A stretch of DNA of 64,000 nucleotides, taken from the sequence record PZ452594.1; one strand, given 5' to 3'. The notes under the pieces are model-generated. The model searched no databases. It was not told the DNA's origin and saw only the letters and a list, made by a program, of their open reading frames with translations. The stretch is from a phage. Shown here piece after piece: positions 24,873 through 42,840 of the stretch. Position numbers and translations under genes: made by a program. Within the stretch, counting starts at the first letter, position 1. The number at the start of each line of letters is the position of its first letter.

Positions 24873-24897
24873 TTTTGTTCCTCCGTAGTTGATAGTT

Positions 24898-24932
24898 GTA
24901 TAGTACCACAGAGGAACAGTCTTGTAAACCAC
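24898..24932 (-). promoter_or_regulatory. early promoter (GTTTAC, 18 nt, TACTAT) carrying conserved 20-mer ttgatagttgtatagtacca
   Basis: sense GTTTACAAGACTGTTCCTCTGTGGTACTAT; the 20-mer at 24889-24908 is identical at 26590-26609 and 42101-42120. Confidence 0.5.
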
Positions 24933-25246
24933 TAAAAGAAACTTCTTTCACAATTTTTTCCACTGAACCAAGCGCTCACTGCTTTCTTAGTCTCAGGAGC
25001 AGTGTTATCCATAAACCATTCAAAGGCAGCCTTTTTATGATTCTGGAGGGCTTCTCGGGCTTTAATCTGCTCACGGTCTATTAACACTAACATATGAGCC
25101 TTTCTTGTCACCAAGGGCTTCTTATGATTCTTGGAGTATTCCCAGTCATTTGTCCAACGCATTGTCGTTGCGAACTGATGAACCGCGTCTTTAATTTTAG
25201 TTTCGTAAATTTCACGAGCCTTTGAGTATAACATCACTACCTCCAT
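24932..25246 (-). CDS. hypothetical protein (104 aa)
   Basis: ORF track. Confidence 0.45.
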   Translation of the reverse strand: MEVVMLYSKAREIYETKIKDAVHQFATTMRWTNDWEYSKNHKKPLVTRKAHMLVLIDREQIKAREALQNHKKAAFEWFMDNTAPETKKAVSAWFSGKNCERSFF

Positions 25247-25335
25247 TTACCAGTTTAATTCTAATCATCTTTTTGATGGCAGTCCATATAATCTATTTCT
25301 GAACTGCCTTTTTGTCATAGAAGTCCTCTTATGAA

Positions 25336-26304
25336 TTATTTCAGAAGAGTAACCTCAGCGATTTCTTCCCAACCGTTTTTGTCGGTCATAATAAAGTCAG
25401 CAAGATAAAGAGCAGTACGCAGTGAAACATTACGTAAACGATTAACATTGACTTTCATCCATGATAATGCTTTATAAGTTTCTTCATCAGAAAGACCGCG
25501 CTTTTGCATCATGTCAGTTGAAAGAATAACATCTTCAACCCTGACCATAATTTCTTCATTAGTGTGAACACCCAAATCCAAATAAACTGAGCGGGACACT
25601 AATGCTTGTAAATGTGGAGCAAGTTTAGTACCACGGTCTAATTCGCGGTCAATGTCAACGTTTGTGATAAAAACAATCGTTCCTTTAAATTCAAACTCAC
25701 GCTCAATGCCTTTTTCTTCTAAGTAAGAAGATGCGGTGCTCCAGCAGACTTTACGGGTCTCTCCAGTGTCCAGAGCAGCTTTCAGAAGATTAAGAATGTC
25801 CATATCAGAGAAAACATCCACATCATCAATCAAAAGGACAGAATTCTCTTCACGATTATTCCAAAGCTGCTCATAAAGACCAATACCAGAGATTTTACCA
25901 TTAATGCTTTTATATTCAATGTATCCAATATCATTTGCTTTATTTAAAGCTTTATCTAAAGAATACGTTTTACCAATACCTGCTGCACCAGAGATAATTA
26001 ATGAACGAATGTTTCCGTTAATAATACCATTCGTCATCATTCCCATAACATTAAATCTTTTATTAATGCGGGTTTTCATATCTTCATACGATTCTTTAAC
26101 TTCTTCAACTTTTACACCATCATATGAAATGTCTGATTTGTAAACCCAAACACCGCGACGTTTACCGTCAATTTCAACAAAAACTTTACCATCTCCTTGT
26201 GCATCTACCGGAGCATTATCTGGGAACCATTCGCCTAAGAGCTCAAAAGTTCCAGAAATTTCTTTACCGAAGTAGATACCCTTATTGATAGTTACAGTTT
26301 TCAT
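25336..26304 (-). CDS. P-loop ATPase (AAA-type, 322 aa)
   Basis: Walker A GAAGIGKT, Walker B VLLIDDVD. Confidence 0.55.
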   Translation of the reverse strand: MKTVTINKGIYFGKEISGTFELLGEWFPDNAPVDAQGDGKVFVEIDGKRRGVWVYKSDISYDGVKVEEVKESYEDMKTRINKRFNVMGMMTNGIINGNIRSLIISGAAGIGKTYSLDKALNKANDIGYIEYKSINGKISGIGLYEQLWNNREENSVLLIDDVDVFSDMDILNLLKAALDTGETRKVCWSTASSYLEEKGIEREFEFKGTIVFITNVDIDRELDRGTKLAPHLQALVSRSVYLDLGVHTNEEIMVRVEDVILSTDMMQKRGLSDEETYKALSWMKVNVNRLRNVSLRTALYLADFIMTDKNGWEEIAEVTLLK

Positions 26305-26361
26305 TTTATTCTCCTTTGATTTGATAGGACTACTATAACATAGTCCTATCAGTTTGTATAC

Positions 26362-26562
26362 TTATTTTGACATTTCTTCGATGTCACGACGATACCCGTC
26401 ACGAACTTCACGAAGAGCTTCAAGGCCACACATAGGCTCGATACCAGTAATGTGAACTTGATTAATCTGATACTCTACATCTTCTAACTGAGCGAAAACA
26501 TAACGACGTTCAGCTGCACAACCAGATTTAGCTTTACCGAAACGTTTATTCAAAGTAGTCAT
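26362..26562 (-). CDS. hypothetical protein (66 aa)
   Basis: ORF track; early promoter directly upstream. Confidence 0.45.
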   Translation of the reverse strand: MTTLNKRFGKAKSGCAAERRYVFAQLEDVEYQINQVHITGIEPMCGLEALREVRDGYRRDIEEMSK

Positions 26563-26597
26563 TTTGTATCTCCAATTTACTCATTTGTTTTGATAGT

Positions 26598-26635
26598 TGT
26601 ATAGTACCATAAAGCTTTATGCTTGTAAACAGTTT
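26598..26635 (-). promoter_or_regulatory. early promoter (GTTTAC, 18 nt, TACTAT) with conserved 20-mer
   Basis: sense GTTTACAAGCATAAAGCTTTATGGTACTAT with A/T-rich UP region. Confidence 0.5.
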
Positions 26636-26661
26636 TGTGAAAAAATTTTTGAAATAAAAAA

Positions 26662-26679
26662 GGGAGCCCGAAGGCTCCC
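26662..26679 (-). terminator. intrinsic terminator GGGAGCCUUCGGGCUCCC + U6
   Basis: plus gggagcccgaaggctccc preceded by a/t run; directly 3' of the 337-aa ORF. Confidence 0.6.
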
Positions 26680-26681
26680 TA

Positions 26682-27695
26682 TCATTTATAATAACTTCGG
26701 TGGTTTTCAAGATAGACCTTCTCAAGGAAGTCATCCCAGAAACTCATGTCTACTTTTTGCTGCATACCGTTCTTAGAAGCTTCAGTAGATGCTGCTTCTA
26801 CTTGATCAACCACATCTTCCAAAAACTCTTGAACTGTTTTAAATGGATGTTTACCCAACTTCACGTCGAGAATAAATGGAGCATCTTGGAGTGGATAAAT
26901 CAAGTCGCCAGTTTTGTAAATTTCCAATAGTTGAAGTCCACCACGACAAGCATGACTTAGTGCTTTCCAATCAATACCTTCATTAGCTTCGGCTTTACGA
27001 GCACGTTCACCATATTCAGCATCTAATTTGTTCAGTGACTGCTTAAGCTCAATAAGAGAAAGTGTTGTCTGATATTTACGACCCAACACAGTGTAGAACG
27101 TTTGCGGGCCTGTTTTCTCGTGATTATGGAACACCCATTCACAGAATTCGTTTTCTGGAAGACGATGCTTAATATCTTCAACTTTAGTGCGACGCTGCTT
27201 AATAGAACCATCTTCTTGGTAATCAATCCACTGCTCAGGAATTTGATTAACTACTTTCAATACATCACGTAATGCAGCCAAACGAGAACCCTTGACACCG
27301 TATTTAGAAGCTTGCTTGCGAACATATCCTAAATAGGATTTCATGTTAGTCGTATAAAAACGAGAACGGTTGTCTTGAATAAACTTCCACACGTCAGGCA
27401 AATCAGATTTAACCACTAGTTCAGGTGGAGTGTGAAGCATATCCAATGCTACAGTTTCACCATCTGCTGCTAATTTAAAGAAATATTTAAGACTGTATAG
27501 TTCATGGTCAATATCATCTTTAGTGTTTTTAGATGATGTGTTGTTGGTATTTTTACTCATATGCTCTTTAACATTTCCGATAAGAATATCGCGAGCAGGA
27601 GGAACAAAGATTTCTTTAAAATCTACATCAGATTCTGGGGTAGAAGTTCCATAAAGATGACTACCAAAATAGCTTTTCATTACTGTTTTCATCAT
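26682..27695 (-). CDS. Pol-beta-superfamily nucleotidyltransferase-like protein (337 aa)
   Basis: N-terminal signature FGSHLYGTSTPESDVDF (GS, ~10 residues, DxD). Confidence 0.55.
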   Translation of the reverse strand: MMKTVMKSYFGSHLYGTSTPESDVDFKEIFVPPARDILIGNVKEHMSKNTNNTSSKNTKDDIDHELYSLKYFFKLAADGETVALDMLHTPPELVVKSDLPDVWKFIQDNRSRFYTTNMKSYLGYVRKQASKYGVKGSRLAALRDVLKVVNQIPEQWIDYQEDGSIKQRRTKVEDIKHRLPENEFCEWVFHNHEKTGPQTFYTVLGRKYQTTLSLIELKQSLNKLDAEYGERARKAEANEGIDWKALSHACRGGLQLLEIYKTGDLIYPLQDAPFILDVKLGKHPFKTVQEFLEDVVDQVEAASTEASKNGMQQKVDMSFWDDFLEKVYLENHRSYYK

Positions 27696-28153
27696 TCAGC
27701 CTTATATTCAATAACAGGACATACTTTAGCTTTACGCGCTTTTAAAAATTCAACGATAACCGATTTCTTGGGTTGAATAGGAGGTAAACCTTTATACGCC
27801 CTATCAATATTTTCTACGTGTAAAGCATAATCCTTTTTCCATTTATAATCTTTATATTTTTCACGCAAATGTGCAGGAATAACAAATGAACCGATAATAA
27901 GTAAAACAACCAAAATCGCAAGTATAAATGCTGATGGAAGCAAAGTCCATAAACTACCAAAAATAATCCAACGCTGTAGGCTTTCTGCACAAATAATTGT
28001 TAGCCCTACGAGTATAGCACATCCAAAAATAGAAACGAAAAATGTAGGAATGGCAATAGACCAAAAATATGCGCATAGTGTCTTAGGTCGTTGCCATTCA
28101 TCGTTAAACAATTTGAATAATTTATAGTGCCAAGAGTTTTCATTAATAATCAT
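27692..28153 (-). CDS. polytopic membrane protein (153 aa)
   Basis: several hydrophobic helices (AYFWSIAIPTFFVSIFGCAILVGLTII; LLPSAFILAILVVLLIIGSFVI). Confidence 0.45.
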   Translation of the reverse strand: MIINENSWHYKLFKLFNDEWQRPKTLCAYFWSIAIPTFFVSIFGCAILVGLTIICAESLQRWIIFGSLWTLLPSAFILAILVVLLIIGSFVIPAHLREKYKDYKWKKDYALHVENIDRAYKGLPPIQPKKSVIVEFLKARKAKVCPVIEYKAE

Positions 28154-28155
28154 AA

Positions 28156-28677
28156 TTATACTTTCATTGAAGGTGTAACAGTTGTTAAATACTTAATCAT
28201 AGCTTCAGCTTCTGATTTTGATAATGAAATTTCTCCACTGTTTTGACGAATAGAAATAAAATCCGGATGACGGTCACCACCAGCTTTTAAAACACACATA
28301 TAAGTATCAACTTCGCCTTCAATATTTGAAATGATTGAAGCAGTTCCACATGAATGCGGTTTTTGATAAATCAACACAGCTTTTCTTCCGCCATTTGACT
28401 GTTCATAGGCTTTTAATACATCAAACAAATCAGTTCTTTTATCAATAGCTAAAATGTTATTTTCATCTTCAATGTTAAATCCTTCGGATACTTCATAAAG
28501 TGTTACCCATAAATCACCAATGTCAATAACAGCATTTACTTTTCCACGGCTTTCAAGAGTATGACAAATTTTCTTGATTTCGTCATAACTCATTTTAATA
28601 ATATCATCTCCTTGACTAAGAAAGATGTCATTTTTAAATTCAACACGAATTAAACCGCTTTCACTTGAAATAAACAT
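28156..28677 (-). CDS. hypothetical acidic protein (173 aa); tandem paralogue A
   Basis: C-terminus KSEAEAMIKYLTTVTPSMKV resembles neighbour. Confidence 0.45.
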   Translation of the reverse strand: MFISSESGLIRVEFKNDIFLSQGDDIIKMSYDEIKKICHTLESRGKVNAVIDIGDLWVTLYEVSEGFNIEDENNILAIDKRTDLFDVLKAYEQSNGGRKAVLIYQKPHSCGTASIISNIEGEVDTYMCVLKAGGDRHPDFISIRQNSGEISLSKSEAEAMIKYLTTVTPSMKV

Positions 28678-28683
28678 ATTTCC

Positions 28684-29238
28684 TCACTTTGAAATCATAG
28701 TTGGAATAACAGAATCAAGATAAGTCTTTAGTGCAATAGCTTCGTCTTTGGTAAATGTGACAATATGTGCTCGAGAATCATCAATTTGGCGAACAAGTAC
28801 GACATCGCCATCTTCATAAGAAGTCTTGACATCCAAAGTCGTAGTATAATTTGCAGCTACTGGATTAATAATGCTAGCACCGCGATCTTTAGCCCATTGA
28901 AGTTTAGCCTTTTCGGGTGTTTCGACTGTTTCAGATTCCAAGAATTCTTTCACCTTGGCAACGAATGTTGCCCAATTGTTGATAGAAAGACACATAAATT
29001 CAGTTTCAATATTACCGCCGTAAAGGCCACGATAAAAACGAACTTGGAGGTCGCCTGTAATATTAGTTACACCGGTAACTCCTGAGGGAGCATAAGATAA
29101 AATCGCAGCCAGTTCCATAGGAAGAATAGTAATACTATCGTCTTCCTGCGTCAGAACGTATACATTATCACGTTTTTCGATAACCAGGTCACCGAACAAA
29201 TCAGTTGTTTCAATTACAGCTTTCATATTATTTACCAA
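28684..29238 (-). CDS. hypothetical acidic protein (184 aa); tandem paralogue B
   Basis: C-terminus KDEAIALKTYLDSVIPTMISK. Confidence 0.45.
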   Translation of the reverse strand: MVNNMKAVIETTDLFGDLVIEKRDNVYVLTQEDDSITILPMELAAILSYAPSGVTGVTNITGDLQVRFYRGLYGGNIETEFMCLSINNWATFVAKVKEFLESETVETPEKAKLQWAKDRGASIINPVAANYTTTLDVKTSYEDGDVVLVRQIDDSRAHIVTFTKDEAIALKTYLDSVIPTMISK

Positions 29239-29413
29239 TTAAAGTTTCAATATAAGAATCAAGATTTACTTTAGCTTCTTCCATAAGAGTTTTGTATTTA
29301 ATCTTGTTAGCATGTCCGGAGAAAGCTGATTCATCAATAATTGTTGATGTATGAACAGCTCTACTATACGTCTCAATTAATTCTCTTAATTTAAAAGCCT
29401 GCTCACTCGTCAT
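29228..29413 (-). CDS. small helical protein (61 aa); small-paralogue family
   Basis: MTSEQAFKLRELIETYSRAV... shared N-terminal pattern M-x-x-(R/E)EQ-x-x-K-(I/L). Confidence 0.4.
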   Translation of the reverse strand: MTSEQAFKLRELIETYSRAVHTSTIIDESAFSGHANKIKYKTLMEEAKVNLDSYIETLIGK

Positions 29414-29543
29414 TACATACTCCTTTGAATAATATCAATAATGTTATTCACCAAATTATAAGTAAACATTGGGTAATTATATTGAATCATCACATACACA
29501 ACAAACAAAACTTTCATTCTCTTCTCCTTGGCAGTTGACAAGA

Positions 29544-29579
29544 TTACTATACCATAACCTTGCCAACTTGTAAACCATT
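29544..29579 (-). promoter_or_regulatory. early promoter (GTTTAC, 18 nt, TATAGT)
   Basis: sense GTTTACAAGTTGGCAAGGTTATGGTATAGT. Confidence 0.5.
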
Positions 29580-29751
29580 AAATGACGTTTTCAATAAAAT
29601 TCTGAAGCTTTGTGTGAGCATCAACCATGATTTTCAATTCTTCTTTGGCGAAAGCTATACCTCTTTCCCGAGAAGAACACTCATAGTCAGAAACTGCATT
29701 AGCATATTCTTCAATTAGCTTCATTAAAAACATCTGCTTTTCAGTTTTCAT
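29578..29751 (-). CDS. small helical protein (56 aa); small-paralogue family
   Basis: hand-translated: MKTEKQMFLMKLIEEYANAVSDYECSSRERGIAFAKEELKIMVDAHTKLQNFIENVI; below track size cutoff. Confidence 0.35.
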   Translation of the reverse strand: MKTEKQMFLMKLIEEYANAVSDYECSSRERGIAFAKEELKIMVDAHTKLQNFIENVI

Positions 29752-29935
29752 TATTCCACCTAATCATTTCAAGATATTGAACTAACTTAGCTTTGGATTT
29801 ATCCAAATCCTTTTTAGCTGCTTCTATACCGTCGTATGAATATCCTTCACAATGCTCAACTGCTAATTGGTATGAATCTATTTCAATATCACGTGCTAAT
29901 TTAATGATTTTTTCAAACTGTTCACGTGTTAGCAT
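29741..29935 (-). CDS. small helical protein (64 aa); small-paralogue family
   Basis: MLTREQFEKIIKLARDIEID... Confidence 0.4.
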   Translation of the reverse strand: MLTREQFEKIIKLARDIEIDSYQLAVEHCEGYSYDGIEAAKKDLDKSKAKLVQYLEMIRWNNEN

Positions 29936-29937
29936 AC

Positions 29938-30177
29938 TTAAACTCTCGTATTATGATCGATAATTTCATCAAGAAACATATCTAACGCTTCTAAAGCATT
30001 ATCAACTTTAGCTTCAAGTTCATCAATGCCTTTATTTGCAATGCCTGACGAAAACCAAGCAAAGTCACTAAGTTCCTCGTCTGCTTTACGAATTAAAGCT
30101 ACCAATTCTTTAATCTTATCCGCTTGTTCGATACTAATCATTATTCCACCACATATGAAAGAGAGAATATTGCACAC
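29938..30177 (-). CDS. small helical protein (79 aa); small-paralogue family
   Basis: ...[24 protein letters not shown]... Confidence 0.4.
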
Positions 30178-30329
30178 GCCATGTGAGTTGCAACTTCATC
30201 ACACATATTATAACGTTTCTTAAGAAGTTCTACAAGTTCTTCACTAGTAACTTCATCCATGTCGACGAAAAAATCACCATTAATGATGACGTAGATATTT
30301 CCTTCTTGATTGAGTGCTTCAATTTTCAT
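30141..30329 (-). CDS. hypothetical protein (62 aa)
   Basis: ATG at 30327-30329 after AAAGAGGAGAA ([21 protein letters not shown]); the longer track ORF would overlap the promoter. Confidence 0.45.
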
Positions 30330-30355
30330 GATGTTCTCCTCTTTATCCGATAGTT

Positions 30356-30392
30356 GTATAGTATCACAGCTCAAACGGAAAGTAAACCGGTA
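30356..30392 (-). promoter_or_regulatory. early promoter (GTTTAC, 18 nt, TACTAT)
   Basis: sense GTTTACTTTCCGTTTGAGCTGTGATACTATACAACTATC. Confidence 0.5.
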
Positions 30393-30402
30393 AAATGAAA
30401 AA

Positions 30403-30420
30403 AGTCTCCCGAAGGAGACT
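30403..30420 (-). terminator. intrinsic terminator AGUCUCC-UUCG-GGAGACU + U6
   Basis: plus agtctcccgaaggagact preceded by a-run; directly 3' of the ORF ending at 30425. Confidence 0.6.
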
Positions 30421-30424
30421 AATG

Positions 30425-30811
30425 TTATTCGAGGGAAAGAAGATACTTACTCTGGTAAAACATTCCAGTAATATCATCTATCGTGCTTTGGATGGCTGGA
30501 GGCATTTCTTTATAAATGCTGTTAGATTGGTCTAGTATGCGATCAATCATTTTAATTGTGTCGGTAGGAAGTTTACTGGCATCTGGAATTGAAGGTGTGT
30601 ATTTTCTACCAGAATACCCCAAATATTGCTCACCAAATTTATCAATCAAATCTGGCAACTCGGAGAAAATAAAATCGTATGCTTTATGTCTAGCATAACT
30701 TTTAGTTTCAAAATGTGCAGAATGAAAATAAGCTTGTGCAGCCATTAATAAACCTAAGTATTCATCTGCCTTTGAAGGTTTTCCACTTTGTGAAAAGTCG
30801 CTGAATTTCAT
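30425..30811 (-). CDS. hypothetical protein (128 aa) immediately downstream of rI
   Basis: ORF track. Confidence 0.5.
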
Positions 30812-31101
30812 TCAGTCTCCAATTTAATGTTCATAATTCTAGCGTATGATTGTGCCATCTCCGCGCCTCGTTCTATACATTCAAAATCAGAAGAGCACGG
30901 GTCATTTTTATAGGTCGTTCTCATAAAACTATAGAATTGTTCAGACGATTCTACGCTTTTATTTTCAAAAAGCATATAAACGTGCCTAATACCAGATTCC
31001 ATAAATTTATCAAAATGAGAATCGACATTCGCTTCAATTGATGGAGATAAAACAAATGACAATCCTAGCATGGCAAAAAGTGCCGTTGCTTTTAAGGCCA
31101 T
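30808..31101 (-). CDS. rI: lysis-inhibition regulator RI (97 aa, signal-anchor N-terminus)
   Basis: MALKATALFAMLGLSFVLSPSIEANVDSHFDKF... matches T4 RI. Confidence 0.85.
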   Translation of the reverse strand: MALKATALFAMLGLSFVLSPSIEANVDSHFDKFMESGIRHVYMLFENKSVESSEQFYSFMRTTYKNDPCSSDFECIERGAEMAQSYARIMNIKLETE

Positions 31102-31113
31102 AAAGGCCTCCTA

Positions 31114-31326
31114 TCATTTTTGTCCTGTATTTACTTTATGCCGGTGCACGGCCTTAACTTTATCAAAGTATTTTTCAAAATTTCGCAATCTAGTATAGTC
31201 TGCCGGAGATTGGTTGAGCGATACTTCTCGACGCAAAGCTGAAATGATATTTCCAACTTCCCTACGAATTTCATCTAATTGAAGAACAGTAAGATTGCGA
31301 AGTTGCTTTTCAGTTAATTGTAGCAT
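31114..31326 (-). CDS. hypothetical protein (70 aa)
   Basis: ORF track. Confidence 0.45.
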
Positions 31327-31368
31327 ATATACCCCTTTAGTTAGATAAACCTATTTATAACTTTTGCA

Positions 31369-31950
31369 CTAACCAAGCTTTTTAGTTAATTCATTCCAAT
31401 GTTTTCTACACAAAGAAACATAAATTTCATCACCAATACAGATTTGATTACCTTCTTTAACTGGTGTTCCATCTTCCATTAATCGAGCTGTCATAATCGC
31501 TTTTTTACCGCAATGACAAACTGCTTTTAGTTCAATAAGTTTATCTGCAATCGCTAAAAGTTCTTTAGAACCTTCAAACAATTTTCCAGCGAAATCAGTC
31601 CTTAATCCATAAGCCATAACAGGAACATTATATGTATCAACAATTCGGCTCAATTGATGCACTTGTTCAGTTTTTAAAAACTGGGCTTCATCTACAAATA
31701 CGCAATGAATATCTTTTTGTGCTTCAGCCCATTTATAGAACTCGAAAATATCCATATCATCTGTGATAATATTCGCTTCCTGTTTAATTCCAATGCGAGA
31801 AACGACTTCACAGACAGAGTCGCGAGTATCAATAGCAGGCTTAAGAACTAATACACTCATTCCACGTTCTTTATAATTATGTGCAGCAGTCAAAAGAGAA
31901 GCAGATTTTCCAGCATTCATTGCTGCATAAGTAAAAATTAAACTCGCCAT
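31369..31950 (-). CDS. tk: thymidine kinase (193 aa)
   Basis: P-loop NAGKSASLL; Cys pairs CHCGKK...CRKH typical of TK1-type zinc site. Confidence 0.9.
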   Translation of the reverse strand: MASLIFTYAAMNAGKSASLLTAAHNYKERGMSVLVLKPAIDTRDSVCEVVSRIGIKQEANIITDDMDIFEFYKWAEAQKDIHCVFVDEAQFLKTEQVHQLSRIVDTYNVPVMAYGLRTDFAGKLFEGSKELLAIADKLIELKAVCHCGKKAIMTARLMEDGTPVKEGNQICIGDEIYVSLCRKHWNELTKKLG

Positions 31951-31951
31951 T

Positions 31952-32140
31952 TTAGTCCTTAGTTAAATTTTCTAAATATGTTTCTAAATCATTTTCAGCT
32001 TTATCGATAGATTTTACTAATTCGTAATATGTTTCGGCATCTCCATAATCAGAAGATAATTCAAAAGACAAATCCTTTTCTAAACTAATAATTTCACCAA
32101 CTAAAAATAATATTTCGTTCTTTTGTTCGCGAGTAATCAT
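31952..32140 (-). CDS. small helical protein (62 aa); small-paralogue family
   Basis: MITREQKNEILFLVGEIISLEKDL... Confidence 0.4.
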   Translation of the reverse strand: MITREQKNEILFLVGEIISLEKDLSFELSSDYGDAETYYELVKSIDKAENDLETYLENLTKD

Positions 32141-32322
32141 AAAGAATTTATATAATCAATGAGTTCTTGTTCTTTATTATCGAATTCTTTAGAAAGTTCT
32201 TCGTATTCATTTGCATTAAAAGGACCGCATTCATCACAAACTTTTTCCAATTCACTGTTTTTATCCATAACTTCGTGGATAAGAGAAAAGAGTTTGTCTT
32301 TTTGTTCTTTGCTTAAACTCAT
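32137..32322 (-). CDS. small helical protein (61 aa); small-paralogue family
   Basis: MSLSKEQKDKLFSLIHEVMDKNSELEKVCDECG... Confidence 0.4.
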   Translation of the reverse strand: MSLSKEQKDKLFSLIHEVMDKNSELEKVCDECGPFNANEYEELSKEFDNKEQELIDYINSL

Positions 32323-32492
32323 ATATTAATTTCCAAAAGTTTTAAAATAATTCGCTTTTGCTTAAATATTTCCACAGTTAAATGATCAGTATCTTTTTGA
32401 CCAATTCCAATGGCAAAACCTTTATTAACAGCGAGTTCAATTAAATTATCAAGTTCACGTAACACTTCATATTGTAACTCAGAACTATTCAT
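32319..32492 (-). CDS. small protein (57 aa), ATGA-coupled to both neighbours
   Basis: hand-translated MNSSELQYEVLRELDNLIELAVNKGFAIGIGQKDTDHLTVEIFKQKRIILKLLEINI. Confidence 0.35.
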   Translation of the reverse strand: MNSSELQYEVLRELDNLIELAVNKGFAIGIGQKDTDHLTVEIFKQKRIILKLLEINI

Positions 32493-32701
32493 TTCGGTTT
32501 ACCTTCTTTAACGAAATCTGGATAAGGATAAAATCCCGAATAAAATCCTTCACCTTTATGATTGATGCATCCTTTATTAGAACAATAGCACCAATAATCG
32601 AAATCACAAGCCATTTCATCGTTGCATAAAGCAAAAACAACCGGCCATTTACACTTTTCACAGTGGGCATTTTTAAGAATACTAGTTTGGCTCATAACCA
32701 T
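32489..32701 (-). CDS. Cys-rich small protein (70 aa), probable metal-binding
   Basis: HCEKCKW...CNDEMACDFDYWCYCSNKGCINHKGEG; preferred over the overlapping alternative frame 32485..32670. Confidence 0.4.
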   Translation of the reverse strand: MVMSQTSILKNAHCEKCKWPVVFALCNDEMACDFDYWCYCSNKGCINHKGEGFYSGFYPYPDFVKEGKPK

Positions 32702-32919
32702 GTCACCTTTAAGCAGTATTCTTCTACATGCTGTTTACGACCTTTCTTATCAATAAAGGTATATTCAACGAATGTTCCAATGTAGTCTTTATCTACATCA
32801 TGTGGACTATTAATTGGACATTTAGTACGGCAAATGCGTTCCCATTGACGAATAATTACTGCCTTATTCTTTGGGTCATACGGATGTGGATAATGTATAT
32901 TCATAATAACGGTTCCCAA
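32692..32919 (-). CDS. hypothetical protein (75 aa)
   Basis: ORF track. Confidence 0.4.
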   Translation of the reverse strand: MGTVIMNIHYPHPYDPKNKAVIIRQWERICRTKCPINSPHDVDKDYIGTFVEYTFIDKKGRKQHVEEYCLKVTWL

Positions 32920-33712: not shown

Positions 33713-34250
33713 TTACTATTTCCAAAAGTTTATTATTTTTAAGGTAATTAGCCTTTTCTAGGACTTCAGAAGCATATTTAGAACCAGCTTTAACATTCCA
33801 TCCCGAATTATAAGAGGATATTGCTTTTCTTATATCGCCCTTATGTATATTTAACCAATAAGAAAGTTCAATGTACGCCCAGGAAGCTGAATTGGATCGT
33901 TTATTCAACATTCTTTTTATTTCAGCATCGGTCATATTATAACCAAGTTCCTTAACTCTTGCTCGCATAGTAGGCAAATAATTTTGGAACATTCCGTAGG
34001 CGTGATGCTTTGGTTTAGATTTTAAATTAACTCCGCCAGAGCTTTCTTGCCATAAAATAGCAGCCATTATATGACCTAATCCGCTCTTGTGGATATTTTT
34101 GTGTGTTTTATATTTTCCATCCTTAGAAAATTGTTCCCCGAATTGATACGCGTAACGCATGTTATCGAGTTGGACATTACTGAAAGTATGCTCGGAGCTA
34201 TGTGCCATCATTGAAATGGCCAATAGACCAGCGAGTAGTGCTTTTCTCAT
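33705..34250 (-). CDS. secreted lytic-transglycosylase-like protein (181 aa)
   Basis: signal peptide MRKALLAGLLAISMMAHS; SLT-type motif AAILWQESSGG...AYGMFQ. Confidence 0.5.
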   Translation of the reverse strand: MRKALLAGLLAISMMAHSSEHTFSNVQLDNMRYAYQFGEQFSKDGKYKTHKNIHKSGLGHIMAAILWQESSGGVNLKSKPKHHAYGMFQNYLPTMRARVKELGYNMTDAEIKRMLNKRSNSASWAYIELSYWLNIHKGDIRKAISSYNSGWNVKAGSKYASEVLEKANYLKNNKLLEIVND

Positions 34251-34257
34251 GCTTACC

Positions 34258-34719
34258 TCATTGAGTTTTAATTACTGCTTTAGAAGCCTTTCCTGGTAAA
34301 CGACGACTGTTGATAATTGCCATCCTACATTGAAGTGACGGGTTTTTGAACTTCTCATTAGGTTTACAAACCGTAAATCCAAGCCAAAGATTTCCATCTG
34401 TAATTTCCAAACGCCCAGGACGATATTCAACCCCATCAATAAAATCCTCGTCAATGTCAGGACGCGGAGGCATACTCAGGAATTCATTAACTTCTAAAAC
34501 ATGGTCTTTTATTTTATGGAATAATTCAAAAACGTATGTCTCATCAATCTCCCGTTGAATTGCGCGATCAAGAAGATGCTGAGAATATTTTAGATGAAAC
34601 GATGAGACTCCTGCTGCTTTTGATGCCTCACGAATCTCATTGTTAATTTGACGAAACTCCGACTCAAAGTGACGACGAAGCTTATTTCGACGGATAAAAA
34701 CTTCTGTATTGATAGTCAT
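34258..34719 (-). CDS. regB: RegB sequence-specific endoribonuclease (153 aa)
   Basis: MTINTEVFIRRNKLRRHFESEFRQINNEIREASKAAG...; size matches T4 RegB. Confidence 0.8.
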   Translation of the reverse strand: MTINTEVFIRRNKLRRHFESEFRQINNEIREASKAAGVSSFHLKYSQHLLDRAIQREIDETYVFELFHKIKDHVLEVNEFLSMPPRPDIDEDFIDGVEYRPGRLEITDGNLWLGFTVCKPNEKFKNPSLQCRMAIINSRRLPGKASKAVIKTQ

Positions 34720-34744
34720 GTTATTCTCCTCTTAACTGATAGAA

Positions 34745-34780
34745 AAATTATACCACAGTCAAGAGGAAAAGTAAACAATT
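34745..34780 (-). promoter_or_regulatory. early promoter for regB (GTTTAC, 18 nt, TATAAT)
   Basis: sense GTTTACTTTTCCTCTTGACTGTGGTATAAT. Confidence 0.55.
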
Positions 34781-35057
34781 ATTCTTTAAATCTGATTAAT
34801 TTATTCATAGACTTTGAAACTTCTGCACGAACCTCATGTAAGTTTTTAAGCTGTTCAAGACGCTGTTCATAGTAAGCAATTTCATCTTCTTCGAGACAGT
34901 CCTGTGAATCTTCTTTAAGATAACGTGCATAGTCCTGGAAAGCTTTACGGACTACTTCCTGGAAGTCATCAAGACTTTGAATTTTCTTAGGAGCGGCAGA
35001 TACACGACGAGGGGCAGTATAATACTCATAACCAAACCCTGCACTTAATTGAGCCAT
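34779..35057 (-). CDS. hypothetical protein (92 aa)
   Basis: ATG at 35055-35057 ([13 protein letters not shown]...). Confidence 0.4.
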
Positions 35058-35359
35058 TAGTATTTTTCCTCTGGTTGGAACACAGCACGGCAAGCCCACA
35101 TACTTGCTTCTTTGAGTTTCGTTTTAGCAATAGTTAACTGATCGAGGCTTTCGGCGTAATTCTTCGCGAGTTCATCATCTTCACAGCTATCAAATGCTTC
35201 CCAAAATTCATCGTATAAAGCATCAAAGATAAGTCCTAAACGAACTTCAGCGTCTTTGATAGCATTCACTTTACCGATTTTCTCTTCAGTATGCGGCTTA
35301 TAACCTTTAATGTCTTCAATCATATTTGACTTCCTCACCAGTACATAAATCATATTCAA
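35057..35359 (-). CDS. hypothetical acidic protein (100 aa)
   Basis: ORF track; start uncertain. Confidence 0.4.
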
Positions 35360-35537
35360 CTAAACGAATAGGTTCATGAATGCCATATCCCTGAACAGAA
35401 ATTTCTGTCGTAGGATAAATTCCATCAATATCACCCATATTCCACGCTTCGTTAAATTGCTGTTCGCCTGAATTACTAAACCACTCGGCGAAAGCATTTA
35501 GCACATCTTTAGAACCTTCAATAATTATCTTTGCCAT
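35316..35537 (-). CDS. hypothetical protein (73 aa)
   Basis: ORF track. Confidence 0.4.
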   Translation of the reverse strand: MAKIIIEGSKDVLNAFAEWFSNSGEQQFNEAWNMGDIDGIYPTTEISVQGYGIHEPIRLVEYDLCTGEEVKYD

Positions 35538-35899
35538 TATAAGCTCTCAGTAAAGGTACGAGCAATAACGTCGCGCTGCTGTTCCGGAGTCAGAGAGTTA
35601 AAGCGAACTGCATAACCGGATACACGGATGGTCAGCTGTGGATATTTTTCCGGATGCTTAACTGCATCTTCCAGAGTTTCACGACGCAGAACGTTAACGT
35701 TCAGGTGTTGACCACCTTCAATTTTAACTGTAGGCTGTGGCTCAATTTCAATTTCACGAGCATGCAAACCGTAGAAAATTTCTGGGTCTACAAAAGAGTC
35801 CTCTTTAAAGGTTTTAGAGACAATAATTCGTGCTTGAATACCATCTTCAAAATAAATAGTACCTTTATGTGTGCCTTCAAGAATTTGATATGCTTTCAT
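35537..35899 (-). CDS. autonomous glycyl-radical cofactor (GrcA/YfiD-like, 120 aa)
   Basis: C-terminal glycyl-radical motif [13 protein letters not shown]; the 3' third of the gene is visibly more GC-rich than the rest. Confidence 0.75.
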
Positions 35900-35906
35900 A
35901 TAAACC

Positions 35907-36287
35907 TCAATTAGAAAATAAATTTATCCAAGATTGTTCTTTAATTAAAAATGGCTCAGAATCATATGCCATTAAACTTTGGGTGATTAGTCCTTTAAAA
36001 GGTCCATCAATAAATTCCATGGTAAAATATGGAATTTTATTCATTAACTGTGCGTTAGGAGCAGTGCACAAAACTCTGCATCCTTTGAATACGCCTTTTT
36101 GTAATTTGTATTGCTTGGGATAAAATTCGCTTAAAATGTTGTTATTTGCCAAAATTTCAAAATGATTCACCAATTTATTTTTAATAGTTTTTGGCGAAAA
36201 ATAAAGATATTCGAAAAGCTGTGTGTCTGTCATCATTGCATTCCGATTACGAAAAACTGCGGACGAGTAATACCACCAATGCAACAT
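35907..36287 (-). CDS. hypothetical protein (up to 126 aa)
   Basis: ORF track; start uncertain. Confidence 0.4.
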
Positions 36288-36829
36288 TTACTATTACAGC
36301 AGTAGTGTACAGTGTCAATATGGACGCTATAAATCTTATCCATATCAGGAGATTTGACAGGCTCATCAATTATATACAAAATTCGCGAAAGCGATAAACC
36401 TCTGAACTTACTTCCTTTATTACCAATAAAACTGCGCACAGAATCAGTAAATAAACGAAAACGTATATCATCATTAGAATAACGCAAAAATTCCTTTTTA
36501 ATGTTATTTGCAGAAATTTTAGCGTAAGCTGAAGTATTAGAAAGAACAATAACTGTTCCGCCATCATACAGCCAATTAGCAGCAAAGTTAGTCACAGCAA
36601 TTGATTTACCGGATTGACGTCCACCATCTATACGAAGTGTGCAGTACTGTTTAAGTAATTCTTCAAATGGCGGGATATATTCGTTTTTACAAATTTCTTC
36701 TACTCTAGCATCAGAATGGTGTGTAAAAGCATTCATCAGGGATAGATACGGGCCAGTTAAAAATGTTCTCATATTTTCTCTCTTAATTTTTGGGCCATTC
36801 CATGGCACATGAGTTGTCCATTCCTGCAT
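36233..36829 (-). CDS. P-loop NTPase-like protein (up to 198 aa)
   Basis: Walker A GGRQSGKS, Walker B-like ILYIIDEP; start uncertain. Confidence 0.45.
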   Translation of the reverse strand: MQEWTTHVPWNGPKIKRENMRTFLTGPYLSLMNAFTHHSDARVEEICKNEYIPPFEELLKQYCTLRIDGGRQSGKSIAVTNFAANWLYDGGTVIVLSNTSAYAKISANNIKKEFLRYSNDDIRFRLFTDSVRSFIGNKGSKFRGLSLSRILYIIDEPVKSPDMDKIYSVHIDTVHYCCNSKCCIGGITRPQFFVIGMQ

Positions 36830-36913
36830 TACCCATTACCGCGCTTTGGCTCGACCTTATTACAGGTTGGCGGGAATCCCTCACAGAATCATGAGGTCCA
36901 GGTTGTTCCCATA

Positions 36914-37387
36914 TTATTTGAACGATTTAACGTACTGAATAGAACCTTTACTATTTACGAAAGCGATTTTACCATTTTTATTATACATGGTAGCAGTACG
37001 CTGATAGCCATAAGTTTGTTTACCAGATTGATAACCAACTAATGCGAAATTATCTTCGCCCATTTTATTCTGTTTAGCGCGAATGCGTTCATGACCATGT
37101 GCCATAAGAACCTTAGCATCACCAGTTGCAATGGATCTACGAGTTTTTTCATCTTCAACTGTATTAACAAAGTCGTCAAATGAATCAAATTTAGCATGAG
37201 ATTTATTATACAGTTTTCCATCTACTGCATAATTATATCCCTGTACATCCATCTCAACTTCTGTACCATCATCCAATACAGCAGTGATTTTTTGACCTTT
37301 TTTAAATTTCAAAAGATCAGTAAAAGATTCAGCAATAATTTGAGAATTAATAGCTGCTTCAGTGATAAATTCTTGATATGTTTTCAT
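36914..37387 (-). CDS. internal-protein-like protein with N-terminal capsid-targeting sequence (157 aa)
   Basis: begins MKTYQEFITEA (T4 IP-type CTS ending in the prohead-protease E|A motif); ATG at 37385-37387 after AAAGGAAAC. Confidence 0.6.
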   Translation of the reverse strand: MKTYQEFITEAAINSQIIAESFTDLLKFKKGQKITAVLDDGTEVEMDVQGYNYAVDGKLYNKSHAKFDSFDDFVNTVEDEKTRRSIATGDAKVLMAHGHERIRAKQNKMGEDNFALVGYQSGKQTYGYQRTATMYNKNGKIAFVNSKGSIQYVKSFK

Positions 37388-37396
37388 ATGTTTCCT

Positions 37397-37813
37397 TTAA
37401 ATGTAAATATTTTTACCGTAATACTTATACCAATGTGGTTTCATTAAAATTTTTTCATCAAGTCGTTGTTGACTCAATTTAATAGCTGATTTGCATGGAT
37501 TATAATCATTTTTCCATTCTACTGGAATATCGCTGATGTCAGGAACTTCAGTATCTTTTATACTGAACCCGCGTTTTAAGCATTCCGTTATAATGTCCGA
37601 TTGACGCTTTCGCAAAAATTCTAACTTATCGTAAAAGAAAGTAACATGACCAGAACCTAAAATAAATTTAGAAGATATTTTAAAATCTTTAACGCGCTTA
37701 CCGTTTGCCACATGCTTACGAACTATACCAAAAACACGCGGCAATTCACGGTATTCTGCGATTAAATGTTGATCAGCAAGTTCAGATACTAAAGTCAAAT
37801 TAATACGAGTCAT
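37397..37813 (-). CDS. denV: endonuclease V, pyrimidine-dimer DNA glycosylase (138 aa)
   Basis: [38 protein letters not shown]... matches T4 DenV with divergence. Confidence 0.85.
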
Positions 37814-37836
37814 TTTATCCCTCCAAGTAACTGTGA

Positions 37837-37872
37837 ATATACTATCACAATTCTAGGAAAAAGTAAACAACT
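37837..37872 (-). promoter_or_regulatory. early promoter for denV (GTTTAC, 18 nt, TAGTAT)
   Basis: sense GTTTACTTTTTCCTAGAATTGTGATAGTAT. Confidence 0.5.
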
Positions 37873-38841
<969 letters not shown>

Positions 38842-38860
<19 letters not shown>

Positions 38861-39330
38861 TCAGTGATAAAGTTATTTAAATTTTGAGCGTATTTCTTTT
38901 CATCAAAAATCTTTTGCTGTCTGCGTAAACGCCATGGCATTTCAATGAATATGCACCATATTCCTGATAATATTGCTGCTGTAAAAATATTAACAAGTAT
39001 GGTTAAAAGAATCCAATCTCCTATTCTGTCCATTGGATTTTTTATAAAAAAGTAAAATACGAATGATGTCACAGGAAGACTAATAATATACCACAGAATC
39101 ATAATTTTATCTGTGAACCAATCAGCGTTCGTTAACTTAGCACGACCATTATGAATACACACGAATTTATCATCTGTTATAATAGATGGCTTAGCTGCTT
39201 GATATCCCATTCTAAACTCCCTAATCAACAAATTTTTCATATCTTCGGAACAACCATTCCAGTCAACTCTATCAACTGAAATGCCATCATCCCCATCATC
39301 TAAATCATACCAGCGAGTTTTTAAAATCAT
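38842..39330 (-). CDS. membrane protein (162 aa); junction-motif family member
   Basis: 2 TM helices; C-terminus NNFITECRKLK. Confidence 0.45.
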
Positions 39331-39689
39331 TTAATTTTCCTACAATCACTCACAAACTCTTCCATTGATTCTTTTTCAATATAAGACATGTAGCTATTAT
39401 ATTCCTTTAATTGTATTTTGTAATCCTTTTTTCTTTGCCAATTTATTTTAAAATTATCATAATGAAAATATAACACTGTACCAAAGAATGAAAATAATGA
39501 AATAATTTTAGTATAGTGAAGTTCACTCCAAACTTCTATTATATTTACTGTGCCGTCAATGTTTAAAATAAGACAGTCAATTAACAATCCAAAAAGACTA
39601 CCCGCAAGAGCTGCAGCCAACGCTACAGCAAAAATTAAAAATGACTCAGGAAGAGAATATTTGACTTTATTTAGTTTTGGCTTTTGCAT
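39327..39689 (-). CDS. membrane protein (120 aa); junction-motif family member
   Basis: TM helices; C-terminus EEFVSDCRKIK. Confidence 0.45.
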   Translation of the reverse strand: MQKPKLNKVKYSLPESFLIFAVALAAALAGSLFGLLIDCLILNIDGTVNIIEVWSELHYTKIISLFSFFGTVLYFHYDNFKINWQRKKDYKIQLKEYNSYMSYIEKESMEEFVSDCRKIK

Positions 39690-40063
39690 CGTGATTCCTT
39701 AACAAATTTCATAATTTCATCAAATTCATGCGCAGCAAGTTTAAGCTGATGTTCCTTTTTAATCTTTTTACACTGAGCTTTCCAATCACGTACACGTTTA
39801 CGATAGTGTCTTCCTTGATACCAATATCCTATCCAATTTATAGGTACTAATAAAAGCGGAACTACCAATGGAAGAATTAGTGTTGCTCCAAATATTGCAC
39901 CAGATTCAATATCAGTCATAACGTCTATAACTATTCCAGCAATCAACAGAATCACAAATGATACGGCTACCACAGGACCTATTAACACATCAGTAGAAAT
40001 TATCTGACGCTTTAATTCATACTTTAAGGGTTTACTTGGAAGATACATTGATGGCTTTGACAT
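39671..40063 (-). CDS. membrane protein (130 aa); junction-motif family member
   Basis: TM helices; C-terminus MKFVKESRCKSQN. Confidence 0.45.
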   Translation of the reverse strand: MSKPSMYLPSKPLKYELKRQIISTDVLIGPVVAVSFVILLIAGIVIDVMTDIESGAIFGATLILPLVVPLLLVPINWIGYWYQGRHYRKRVRDWKAQCKKIKKEHQLKLAAHEFDEIMKFVKESRCKSQN

Positions 40064-40637
40064 ATTCTCTGCATTCCTTCACAAATTTTTCTAATAATAA
40101 ATCGCTTTCAAAATTGGGATTTTCTACGAATTTATCAAAAAGATCATCGACAATAGTTAAGATATTCTTTTTACTAAGAATACGTTTATTTTCATGCTTC
40201 GTTTCAGAATCAACTATAAGAGTAAAGAAATATTTCTTGCCCTGAAATTTTACAGTAGTATCAATATAGAATAAATTTGACTTTTGTAAATTACGTTTAA
40301 ACCATGCATCACTTAAACTATAAACGCCAAGATAATCATAATCGTCGTTTAAATAACAGACCGTCCATTCAGGAGAAACAAAATCAGTAAATTCAACATC
40401 AAAATCACATGTTAATGAATGAATTGATTCAATACTGTTAATAAGTATTCCAGGACGTATTAAAGACTTTTTACCTTTATAAAATCCAGAAAGACTTTCA
40501 TCAGTTTCATATGAAGAACCCCAATAATAATTACGTCCTTCTGCCATACGTTTAAGAGCATTTAATAATTGGTCTGGAACATCAACCTGTCTTTGGAACT
40601 CTTCAAACATTGAATTGAAATCACTTTGCATTTTCAT
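40032..40637 (-). CDS. hypothetical protein (201 aa); junction-motif family member
   Basis: C-terminus EKFVKECREYVKAIN overlaps next gene start. Confidence 0.45.
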   Translation of the reverse strand: MKMQSDFNSMFEEFQRQVDVPDQLLNALKRMAEGRNYYWGSSYETDESLSGFYKGKKSLIRPGILINSIESIHSLTCDFDVEFTDFVSPEWTVCYLNDDYDYLGVYSLSDAWFKRNLQKSNLFYIDTTVKFQGKKYFFTLIVDSETKHENKRILSKKNILTIVDDLFDKFVENPNFESDLLLEKFVKECREYVKAINVSSK

Positions 40638-40658
40638 TCCTACTTACTCCAAGTAATA

Positions 40659-40672
40659 GGGGCCGAAGCCCC
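40659..40672 (-). terminator. GGGGCUUCGGCCCC hairpin
   Basis: plus ggggccgaagcccc between ORFs. Confidence 0.45.
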
Positions 40673-40678
40673 TTATCA

Positions 40679-41272
40679 TTATTTCAGAGAATTAATGTAT
40701 TCCTGAACATCGGCAGAGGTAGTTTCAACCCCAGAAATATTGCCATTAAAGGTTTCAACTCGAGCAAGAGTATCTTCAATATCAACCTTAGTCAGTGCTG
40801 CAATTTCAACTACATCATCAGCAGTACTAATTCCGAGGGCATTCGCGGCGCGAGTTTCACGGATATATTCCAATTTAACTGCAAGTTCTTGGCGAGCATC
40901 ATCTAACTCAACTACTTTCTTGGCGATTTCAATTCGCATTTCAGCATAACCATCAGCTTTAGTAGTCAACTGCTCAGCTGTTCGACGATATAGTAAACCG
41001 AGTTTAGCATGCATTGTTACATCTTGACCTTCAGAAAGAAGCTTGCGAATTTCACGCTCTTTTGATTCGGCCTGCTTATTCTTTTCGACAATAAGTTCAC
41101 GAATACGCTTTTCTTCATTAATAGATTTAACAGAAGCAGTTTTTAGATCTTTAATCTTATCAAGTAGTTTTGCTGCTGCAGCAGTATACTGCTCTTCAAC
41201 AGATAGATTTTTAGCCATAGCAGAACCAAGTTTAGTGCGAATAAACTCAACAATTTTCTTCAGCATGTTCAT
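40679..41272 (-). CDS. coiled-coil protein (197 aa)
   Basis: ORF track; long heptad-rich helical sequence. Confidence 0.45.
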
Positions 41273-41349
41273 AGCATTTCCTTTAGTTAATTAAGGGTTT
41301 TATAATCCGTGGGAGTATTATACTCTACTCCCGAGAGTTTGTAAACATG

Positions 41350-41748
41350 TTATTTCATTTTTGCGAGGCAGATTTCATTGGCTTCCCATTGAGCTTGCTT
41401 AATAATAGCTTTGGATACAGGAACCTTTTGACCATAAGTTTTTGACGTTGAGAGAACAATATATTTGTTTGCCTCATTATGCCAACCCCATGATTCTTCG
41501 CCATGAGTACCTTTAACTACAGCTGACACCTCAACAGAACATCCATCATCACCAATCTTGGTGTCTACAATCCATTCATTTCTCTCGACAGCTTCATTTT
41601 CCGATCTCATTTTTTCTTCATACACGGCGACCCAATCAGTTTTTGTCAAGCTTAAACTAAGAGCTTTCTCTAATTCTTTAACAGATTTTTGTTGTTCGGG
41701 TGTTAATGAATTATATAACTCTCGCATTTCTTTATCTTCAATATTCAT
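41350..41748 (-). CDS. hypothetical protein (132 aa)
   Basis: ORF track. Confidence 0.45.
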   Translation of the reverse strand: MNIEDKEMRELYNSLTPEQQKSVKELEKALSLSLTKTDWVAVYEEKMRSENEAVERNEWIVDTKIGDDGCSVEVSAVVKGTHGEESWGWHNEANKYIVLSTSKTYGQKVPVSKAIIKQAQWEANEICLAKMK

Positions 41749-41804
41749 TATGTTCTCCTCAAAGTTATAGGCTCATAATATCTCAATCATGAGCCTGTGT
41801 AAAC

Positions 41805-42068
41805 TTATTTCATATTATTGAAATATTCTTCAGCAATTTCATCATTATCATGATAAACTTTAGAAGACAGTTTAACATAACTTTCAGCAGTGAACATGTT
41901 AATCACAACCTTTACAGTATACCACTGACCGTCTTCATTACCCATTACTGCATAAGTTTCAAACATCGGATGGTCAGGACCGATAACTTTAATATCATTC
42001 ACTGTACGACCGAAATCTTCTGAAACGCATTTCATAAAGAAGTTAAACAGTTCGCCGTAATTATCCAT
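41805..42068 (-). CDS. hypothetical acidic protein (87 aa)
   Basis: track start 42080 is TTG; ATG at 42066-42068 after GGAGAA. Confidence 0.45.
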   Translation of the reverse strand: MDNYGELFNFFMKCVSEDFGRTVNDIKVIGPDHPMFETYAVMGNEDGQWYTVKVVINMFTAESYVKLSSKVYHDNDEIAEEYFNNMK

Positions 42069-42109
42069 TTCGTTCTCCAAGTTGTTTTCTGTATCAGTAG
42101 TTGATAGTT

Positions 42110-42146
42110 GTATAGTACCATGGAAGAACAGGGATGTAAACAGTTT
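42110..42146 (-). promoter_or_regulatory. early promoter (GTTTAC, 18 nt, TACTAT) with conserved 20-mer
   Basis: sense GTTTACATCCCTGTTCTTCCATGGTACTAT. Confidence 0.5.
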
Positions 42147-42270
42147 TGTGAAAAATTTTTAAAAAGTTTTAGGGAATTCTAGGGCCAGGAGGGGCAATTA
42201 AAAGGTAGGATAATATATTATAAAGGGTATAAACTAAATGATGCCTAGAGAGGCCCGGAAAGGCCTAGAT

Positions 42271-42837: not shown

Positions 42838-42840
42838 AAG

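Follow-up and report, generated by a model that had tools for sequence, protein, structure and literature searches.

Repeated early-promoter cores in a T4-like phage: probable paralogous regulatory cassettes with an occasional part in gene exchange

Four promoter cores at the locus

The stretch of phage DNA analysed here, all 64,000 nucleotides (nt) of it from sequence record PZ452594.1 and called the window throughout, harbours dispersed copies of a 20-nt sequence, TTGATAGTTGTATAGTACCA, that precede early genes and have the make-up of T4-type early promoter cores. The phage belongs to Tequatrovirus; it is colinear with T4 at about 95% identity, and the window corresponds to the T4 region from nrdC.5 through the tRNA cluster; megablast gave 97-98% identity to MLF4 and RB27 and 95-98% across Tequatrovirus genomes. 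The window has a G+C content of about 35% and a GC skew that is negative up to about 50 kb, and the skew and the map of open reading frames (ORFs) place all genes around the 20-mers on the minus strand. The functional reading of the repeat is therefore its reverse complement, TGGTACTATACAACTATCAA. A reading as a plus-strand element was rejected, the neighbouring genes, Shine-Dalgarno sequences and terminators all being on the minus strand, as are the promoters described below.

Exact copies had been placed by the initial annotation at 24889-24908, 26590-26609 and 42101-42120 (plus-strand coordinates), and all three are there. The near-identical copy that it put at about 30346-30365 also exists, one base further on at 30347-30366, where CCGATAGTTGTATAGTATCA differs from TTGATAGTTGTATAGTACCA by three mismatches. 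The copies are numbered 1 (24889), 2 (26590), 3 (the near-copy at 30347) and 4 (42101) below. The chance expectation for such matches was 0.01, and four were reached in none of 100 shuffles; a repeat search of the window, which had been proposed as a check, returned, as the four largest families of direct repeats, early promoters of the family described below. Homology extends past the 20 nt: copies 1 and 4 have 24 exact nt in common, and a further 20 nt, GTAAACAGTTTTGTGAAAAA (plus strand; 26625-26644 and 42136-42155), are the same in copies 2 and 4. This second 20-mer reads TTTTTCACAAAACTGTTTAC on the minus strand and takes in the -35 box and the proximal part of the upstream promoter (UP) element. 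Versions related to GTAAACAGTTTTGTGAAAAA occur at 14182 and 46407. Within the 20-mer, ACTAT is repeated directly (ACTAT-aca-ACTAT), and the second ACTAT gives rise to AACTAT, which resembles a -10 box and surrounds the start site. A perfect palindrome of 12 nt, ATAAAGCTTTAT, lies in the spacer that separates the -35 box of copy 2 from its core (26609-26624, minus).

On the minus strand TGGTACTATACAACTATCAA resolves into a TGn element (TG at -15/-14), the -10 box TACTAT, the discriminator ACAACT and an A at the start. The motif GTTTAC lies 15 nt upstream of the 20-mer and hence 18 nt upstream of the -10 hexamer (GTTTAC-N18-TACTAT) in all four copies. Each copy had been taken to supply the -10 and start region of an early promoter with GTTTAC 18 nt upstream; this assignment stands, on the minus strand and with the 18 nt counted from TACTAT. 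With GTTTAC placed at -36 to -31, its position in T4 early promoters (PMC1524935), the 20-mer spans -15 to +5, and the predicted start A would fall at 24893, 26594, 30351 and 42105. The extended -10 region with TAnnnT reads TGGTACTAT wherever the 20-mer is exact and TGATACTAT at the near-copy, which fits the published T4 early motif TGTG(A/G)TA(C/T)(A/T)AT as quoted in a differential RNA sequencing study (bioRxiv 10.1101/2024.04.04.588121). An A/T-rich UP element is clear in copies 2 and 4 (aaaaatttttcacaaaact); it is weaker in copy 1, where it falls within coding sequence, and in copy 3, where its position is taken by the T run of a terminator. Each core is separated by a leader of 16-32 nt, with a GGAG-type Shine-Dalgarno sequence at its end, from the start codon (ATG) of an early gene. 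The promoters are correctly oriented, with the Shine-Dalgarno sequence and ATG of the nrdC.8, ORF66/nrdC.10, mobD.5 and e.8 homologues 20-50 nt downstream, within the 20-60 nt called for in T4 early promoters.

The promoter of the nrdC.8 homologue (copy 1; 24889..24929, GTTTAC 24929-24924, exact 20-mer 24908-24889) is followed by the leader ctacGGAGGaacaaaa and the ATG at 24872, and overlaps the 3' end of the upstream nrdC.9-like ORF. Copy 2 belongs to a composite of terminator and early promoter (26590..26680), in which a hairpin, AGGGAGCCTTCGGGCTCCCT, with its T run (26680-26661) is succeeded by an A/T-rich UP region, GTTTAC (26630-26625) and the exact 20-mer (26609-26590). This promoter would drive a variable cassette (26362..26589), absent from T4, that is made up of the leader aacaaatgagtaaattGGAGatacaaa and a 66-amino-acid ORF, ORF66 (26562-26362; phrog_6200, function unknown). 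A degenerate early-promoter-like element, P3, precedes nrdC.10 at the distal edge of this cassette (26314..26361; GTATAC-N18-TATAGT, weight-matrix score 18.1), with an inverted repeat around its -10 box and then agtcctATCAAatcaaaGGAGAATAAAATG. Copy 3, before the mobD.5 homologue (30347..30420), has a terminator hairpin at 30420-30403, GTTTAC at 30387-30382, the 3-mismatch 20-mer at 30366-30347 and the ATG at 30329. Copy 4, before the e.8 homologue (42101..42165), has the UP element ttaaaaatttttcacaaaact, GTTTAC at 42141-42136, the 20-mer at 42120-42101 and a leader to the ATG at 42068; a terminator hairpin lies further upstream (42278..42301). It had been noted that two of the copies directly follow terminator hairpins, and this holds for copy 2 and the near-copy. 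The hairpin upstream of copy 4 is 137 nt from the -35 box, and copy 1 has none, which is explained by the overlap of its promoter with the end of the gene upstream. The record of phage Lutter has promoters and terminators, predicted by its submitters, at each of the four orthologous places. A search of Rfam found no family at or near the repeats, its only matches being the tRNAs at 43157-44610.

In the window 13 minus-strand sites match GTTTAC-N18-TAnnnT, each upstream of an ORF, to which the degenerate site with GTATAC at 26361 may be added. The 20-mer differs from the consensus of this 13-site family at two weakly conserved positions only; a weight matrix made from so few sites is overfitted, and it was used for listing candidates only. 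Discriminators of the other early promoters are TACCCT, AATCTT, TTTTCT and the like, and not ACAACT. Inverted repeats such as tagggtagtgaTACTATtaccctatcaa and gggagtagagTATAATactccc flank the -10 box of many early promoters, among them those at 46067-46107, 46367-46407, 41306-41346, 41764-41804, 37828-37868 and 26321-26352; the resulting hairpin would be present in transcripts reading through from upstream and absent from the promoter's own transcript.

The 20-mers are thus cores of the classical T4 early promoters, an already described kind. The class is reportedly that of Liebig and Rueger in 1989, Wilkens and Rueger in 1996 and Miller and colleagues in 2003. It has been reviewed as the 'uber' UP/-35/TGn/-10 promoter with extra consensus regions (Hinton 2010, PMC2988021), and the copies agree with it in the position of GTTTAC, the GT-rich TGn element, TAnnnT at canonical spacing, the A/T-rich UP region where it is clear (copies 2 and 4) and their placement, on the early strand ahead of early genes. 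In T4 the three orthologous sites, upstream of nrdC.8, nrdC.10 and e.8, bear the 20-mer without a change, and versions with three mismatches lie upstream of mobD.5 and denV; the sole difference is that copy 2 would drive the 66-amino-acid ORF here and nrdC.10 directly in T4. A primer-extension stop has been attributed to the T4 mobD.5 promoter, and the endoribonuclease RegB, acting with S1, recognises the Shine-Dalgarno region GGAGAAUAAAA and its relatives in T4 and cleaves at the Shine-Dalgarno sequence of nrdC.8 (PMC1702504). The exact 20-mer occurs 5-6 times per complete T4-like genome in IMG/VR and precedes at least ten different first genes there. In one T4-like genome, IMGVR_UViG_2974787500_000001 (L016 at about 3301, L028 at about 2836), two 20-mers have lost the UP element and the -35 box, and a terminator hairpin is fused 3-11 nt upstream of TGGTAC; these copies may be inactivated, or may be promoters of a TGn/-10-only type.

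Breakpoints at the copies and at other early promoters

Breakpoints were mapped by chained BLAST alignments of ten relatives (T4, T6, Jbel, AndreasVesalius, KMB40, IME339, PD112, ECML-134, Lutter and phage 132) against the window. At copy 2, a true hotspot, the alignments end at 26314 in nine of the ten; they start again at 26559 in two and precisely with the first base of the 20-mer (26590) in seven, and it is at this 3' edge of the 20-mer that the arrangements part. No fewer than four arrangements of the slot that separates nrdC.11 from nrdC.10 occur among 676 phage records. In the T4 type the promoter P1 would drive nrdC.10 directly; in the window type P1 would drive ORF66 and P3 nrdC.10; in the PD112 type P1 would serve ORFa and a DUF4031 gene and P2' nrdC.10; and in the FJ1/L021 type, found in nine records, P1 would serve ORFa and the DUF4031 gene, P2 ORF66 and P3 nrdC.10. 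The PD112 promoter in front of nrdC.10 is of the TACTAT-taccctATCAA type and comes with its leader, as at 46067..46407 in the window.

The slot of the window equals the FJ1/L021 arrangement minus the segment between the two occurrences of a 13-nt sequence, CTATCAAAACAAA, common to P1 and P2. A crossover in CTATCAAAACAAA of an L021-type P1 and P2 would give exactly the sequence of the window, with which such an event is consistent. A similar unit is found in the Mosigvirus APCEc01 (L036 1490-1830), where the stretch from the P2 -35 box through ORF66 to the leader after P3 is retained at 95% nucleotide identity, with a 98.5% identical ORF66 protein, between genes unrelated to nrdC.10 and nrdC.11. 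The P3 element travels with ORF66 in APCEc01, and the comparison suggests that a promoter-bounded ORF66 cassette has been transferred horizontally between genera.

The identical 20-mers had been proposed as recombination points for modular gene shuffling and as marks of the units most likely to vary between relatives. This is supported at copy 2, a copy at the edge of a variable slot, and not at copies 1, 3 and 4, which are not hotspots and show no breakpoint at the 20-mer in about 500 relatives. The sequence at copy 1 is uninterrupted in 499 records and colinear even in Mosigvirus, and none of the listed records breaks at its 20-mer. Copy 3 is contiguous in 500 of 502 records. In one of the exceptions, phage Shinka (MZ502379; L037 1984-1995), a 4.7-kb deletion runs from mobD.5 through part of nrdC.10 (window 30356 and 25634), with one endpoint inside the mobD.5 promoter core (TGGTACTA|) and the other in a 12-nt chance match inside nrdC.10; judged from its junction this is a microhomology deletion whose partner was not another 20-mer copy. 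Copy 4 is contiguous across the 20-mer in 514 of 537 records, and the promoter region of e.8 retains 94% identity in RB69. Variation at this locus begins at the upstream terminator (42278..42301), the site at which relatives break or carry insertions beside the e.8 unit: breaks lie at 42271-42304, and alignments start at query 54-61 or carry an insertion of about 680 bp. Upstream of it the tRNA cluster (8 tRNAs, 43157-44610) and its surroundings (window 42300-44700) are strongly variable between relatives, which differ in their tRNA sets and in the presence of inserted segB-like or HNH endonuclease genes.

Early promoters other than the 20-mer copies also adjoin changes in gene content. T6 (L030 at about 17905-18010) is without 3.08 kb (34778-37859), between two -35 boxes, that carry vs.3-vs.8, an ip gene and denV in the window. 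At the T6 junction the promoters at 37868 and 34776 form a perfect hybrid, with the crossover within a sequence that both contain, ttGTTTACtttt. One endpoint is the -35 region of the regB early promoter (34736..34776; GTTTAC-N18-TATAAT) and the other lies in the early promoter before denV (37828..37868; GTTTAC-N18-TAGTAT), and the junction reads as a clean promoter-to-promoter deletion or insertion. The promoter at 37868 precedes denV here and ipIII in T4, with a breakpoint in its leader at 37817-37826. In the e.7 slot (41306..41804) the gene at 41350-41748 lies between early promoters with GTTTAC at 41804 and 41346; most relatives have different genes there (336-531 bp), and ECML-134 has none. 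Two further early promoters at 46067..46407 (GTTTAC at 46407 and 46107) are of the TACTAT-taccctATCAA type with an inverted repeat at the -10 box. Elsewhere, T6 and phage 132 carry a 722-bp insertion with a seg-like homing endonuclease gene between nrdC.9 and nrdC.10 (window 25329-25355), which is not associated with an early promoter.

Weighing the explanations

At the orthologous promoters of the ten relatives variation is seen in the spacer, in the UP region and at -37, the base before GTTTAC. The 20-mer is unchanged in all ten at nrdC.8, in nine at the nrdC.10 slot, the remaining one having given no match, and in nine at e.8. An unchanged 20-mer amid varying flanks points to purifying selection. 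The four copies appear to be paralogues rather than products of convergence, because the ACAACT discriminator is absent from the other early promoters. Leader modules such as ctgatacggatttGGAGAATAAAATG and ctactgatacag occur in different combinations in the IMG/VR contexts, and one record (L026) has an unrelated gene behind a promoter of the nrdC.8 type, which extends there from the -35 box up to and including the Shine-Dalgarno sequence.

We consider it likely that the 20-mers are paralogous cores of sigma-70 immediate-early promoters, kept by selection, that occasionally furnish short homology for the recombination of gene cassettes. Four cores from -15 to +5 would then drive the nrdC.8 homologue, the 66-amino-acid ORF followed by nrdC.10, the mobD.5 homologue and the e.8 homologue, all on the minus strand. 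Each would head a cassette that runs from an optional terminator hairpin through the UP element, GTTTAC, the 18-nt spacer and the core to a leader whose GGAG Shine-Dalgarno sequence may double as a RegB/S1 cleavage site. Host RNA polymerase would use such promoters in the first minutes of infection, and the cores would be kept identical mainly by purifying selection for promoter strength. With the same 20-40 nt heading many early units, a short homology would occasionally be at hand for recombination, which, along a pathway that we infer from the junctions, could add, remove or swap promoter-bounded gene cassettes.

Several results weigh against this interpretation. Promoter activity in the window phage is itself a prediction, made from the consensus, the identity to T4 and the one published primer extension at mobD.5. 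Copies 1, 3 and 4 have no breakpoint at the 20-mer in about 500 relatives, and no product of recombination between one 20-mer copy and another was found in the IMG/VR contexts or in about 500 phage records per site, the deletion of Shinka being the single event with an endpoint inside a 20-mer. The laboratory mutant T4_7t1 (OL964745) has two deletions of about 2 kb (L031 11038 and 16207), from nrdC.11 to mobD.1 and from vs.3 to vs.8, and neither junction uses a 20-mer or has notable homology; these deletions, the second of which also takes out the -35 box of the regB promoter, were therefore rejected as direct evidence of recombination. Gene junctions with an early promoter bore breakpoints more often than those without (9/13 against 18/52; odds ratio 4.25, one-sided p=0.026, Fisher), which is a modest enrichment of early promoters as a class. 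Promoter junctions are longer, and normalised by length the densities were 0.94 and 0.60 breakpoints per 100 bp (p=0.12). Since the per-junction difference weakens in this way, the support comes from the junction sequences and not from strong statistics. For the 20-mers the recombinational role would thus be occasional, the support for it being limited to copy 2.

The same results lend themselves to an account in which the elements are promoters only, identical through selection to an optimum and without a role in rearrangement, since whole-gene indels must end between genes in any case. The unbroken copies 1, 3 and 4, the closeness of the 20-mer to the family consensus and the length-normalised density, which is not significantly raised at promoter junctions, all agree with it. 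We nevertheless regard it as unlikely. ACAACT is not found throughout the family, so that a four-fold identity speaks for common descent; the crossovers of T6, and of the window relative to L021, lie inside shared promoter sequence; and the same core and leader modules stand before at least ten unrelated genes.

The discriminator and start region ACAACTATCAA and the leader modules might, further, define a distinct promoter-leader sub-family that is copied to new loci, or read differently, by a dedicated mechanism, such as a phage factor for which -6..+5 or the RNA 5' end is the target, or a process resembling transposition that is site-specific or coupled to replication. We give this idea little credence.

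Identity could also have arisen by recent duplication or gene conversion, in the manner of concerted evolution, and owe nothing to selection. Hints of this kind are the 24 exact nt and partly similar spacers of copies 1 and 4, the second exact 20-mer shared by copies 2 and 4 in the -35/UP region, and hybrid spacers in IMG/VR variants such as aagactgttcttcca. A recent wholesale event is disfavoured because the copies do not have the same spacer from the -35 box to the core (aagactgttcctctg, aagcataaagcttta, atccctgttcttcca), and the explanation becomes very improbable when it is considered that orthologous copies are exact in T4 and the ten relatives while adjacent non-coding positions vary, and that the e.8 promoter region is still 94% identical in RB69. 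Least probable of all is that the extended identity marks a recognition site for a modulator or shut-off factor, perhaps phage-encoded, or for a site-specific recombination system: conservation past the sigma-70 elements (-6..+5 and leader modules such as CTACTGATAC), the unexplained stimulation of some T4 early promoters by Alt (PMC2988021) and the choice between homologous and site-specific recombination, left open by Arbiol et al. 2010 as far as that paper is cited in Comeau et al. 2014 (PMC4122927), leave room for it, but neither a recombinase nor another candidate factor has been connected with the sites, and breakpoints are scattered (the -35 box in T6, +1..+12 at copy 2, the leader of the promoter at 37868) as for short-homology events and unlike those at a fixed site.

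Known systems and significance

The nearest precedent for selected promoter cores that serve cassette exchange is the promoter-early stem-loop (PeSL), a composite of terminator and promoter for which shuffling was proposed in RB49 and phi1 (Arbiol et al. 2010, PMC2839356). Comeau et al. (2014, PMC4122927) explicitly applied the model to T4 and PST, where the consensus is TTTACW-N17-TAYWAT. The PeSL structure of terminator hairpin, early promoter, Shine-Dalgarno sequence and ATG is matched exactly by copy 2 and the near-copy. Hyperplastic regions are rich in PeSL elements, which lie next to indels that distinguish close relatives, as copy 2 does at a multi-allelic slot, and here too the element recurs before unrelated ORFs (at least ten first genes, 5-6 copies per complete genome). 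The natural junctions of T6, and of the window relative to L021, are consistent with PeSL-type events, the excision of mini-circles or deletion between tandem elements. Unlike a PeSL, copy 1 is without a stem-loop and lies partly within a coding region, the stem-loop of copy 4 is 137 nt away, and three of the four copies have no adjacent indel in about 500 genomes.

At the internal protein (IP) locus of T-even phages alternative genes are likewise swapped between conserved regulatory sequences (Repoila et al. 1994, to the extent related in PMC4122927). In the window this behaviour is met at the ip/denV slot (36.8-37.9 kb) and the e.7 slot, the 20-mer copies being at other loci. Lambdoid phages are said to carry morons, autonomous units of promoter, gene and terminator inserted between conserved genes, and boundary sequences, short conserved intergenic stretches that reportedly act as exchange points; both are ascribed to Juhala and colleagues in 2000 and to Clark and colleagues in 2001. 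They differ from the present case in phage group and sequences, and in being expressed from the prophage as opposed to a lytic early programme of T4 type.

The shuffling interpretation is that of the published PeSL model, and overall these observations are known biology, re-observed and refined. The refinement is that core identity is explained mainly by selection on a paralogous regulatory cassette. A calibration is added as well, in that an identical promoter core alone does not predict a variable locus, one of the four copies being a real hotspot. The accessory early genes of T-even phages would thus be packaged as self-contained units of terminator, promoter, leader and ORF, and such units may be gained, lost and moved between genera at conserved regulatory sequences, which is relevant to the turnover of anti-defence genes.

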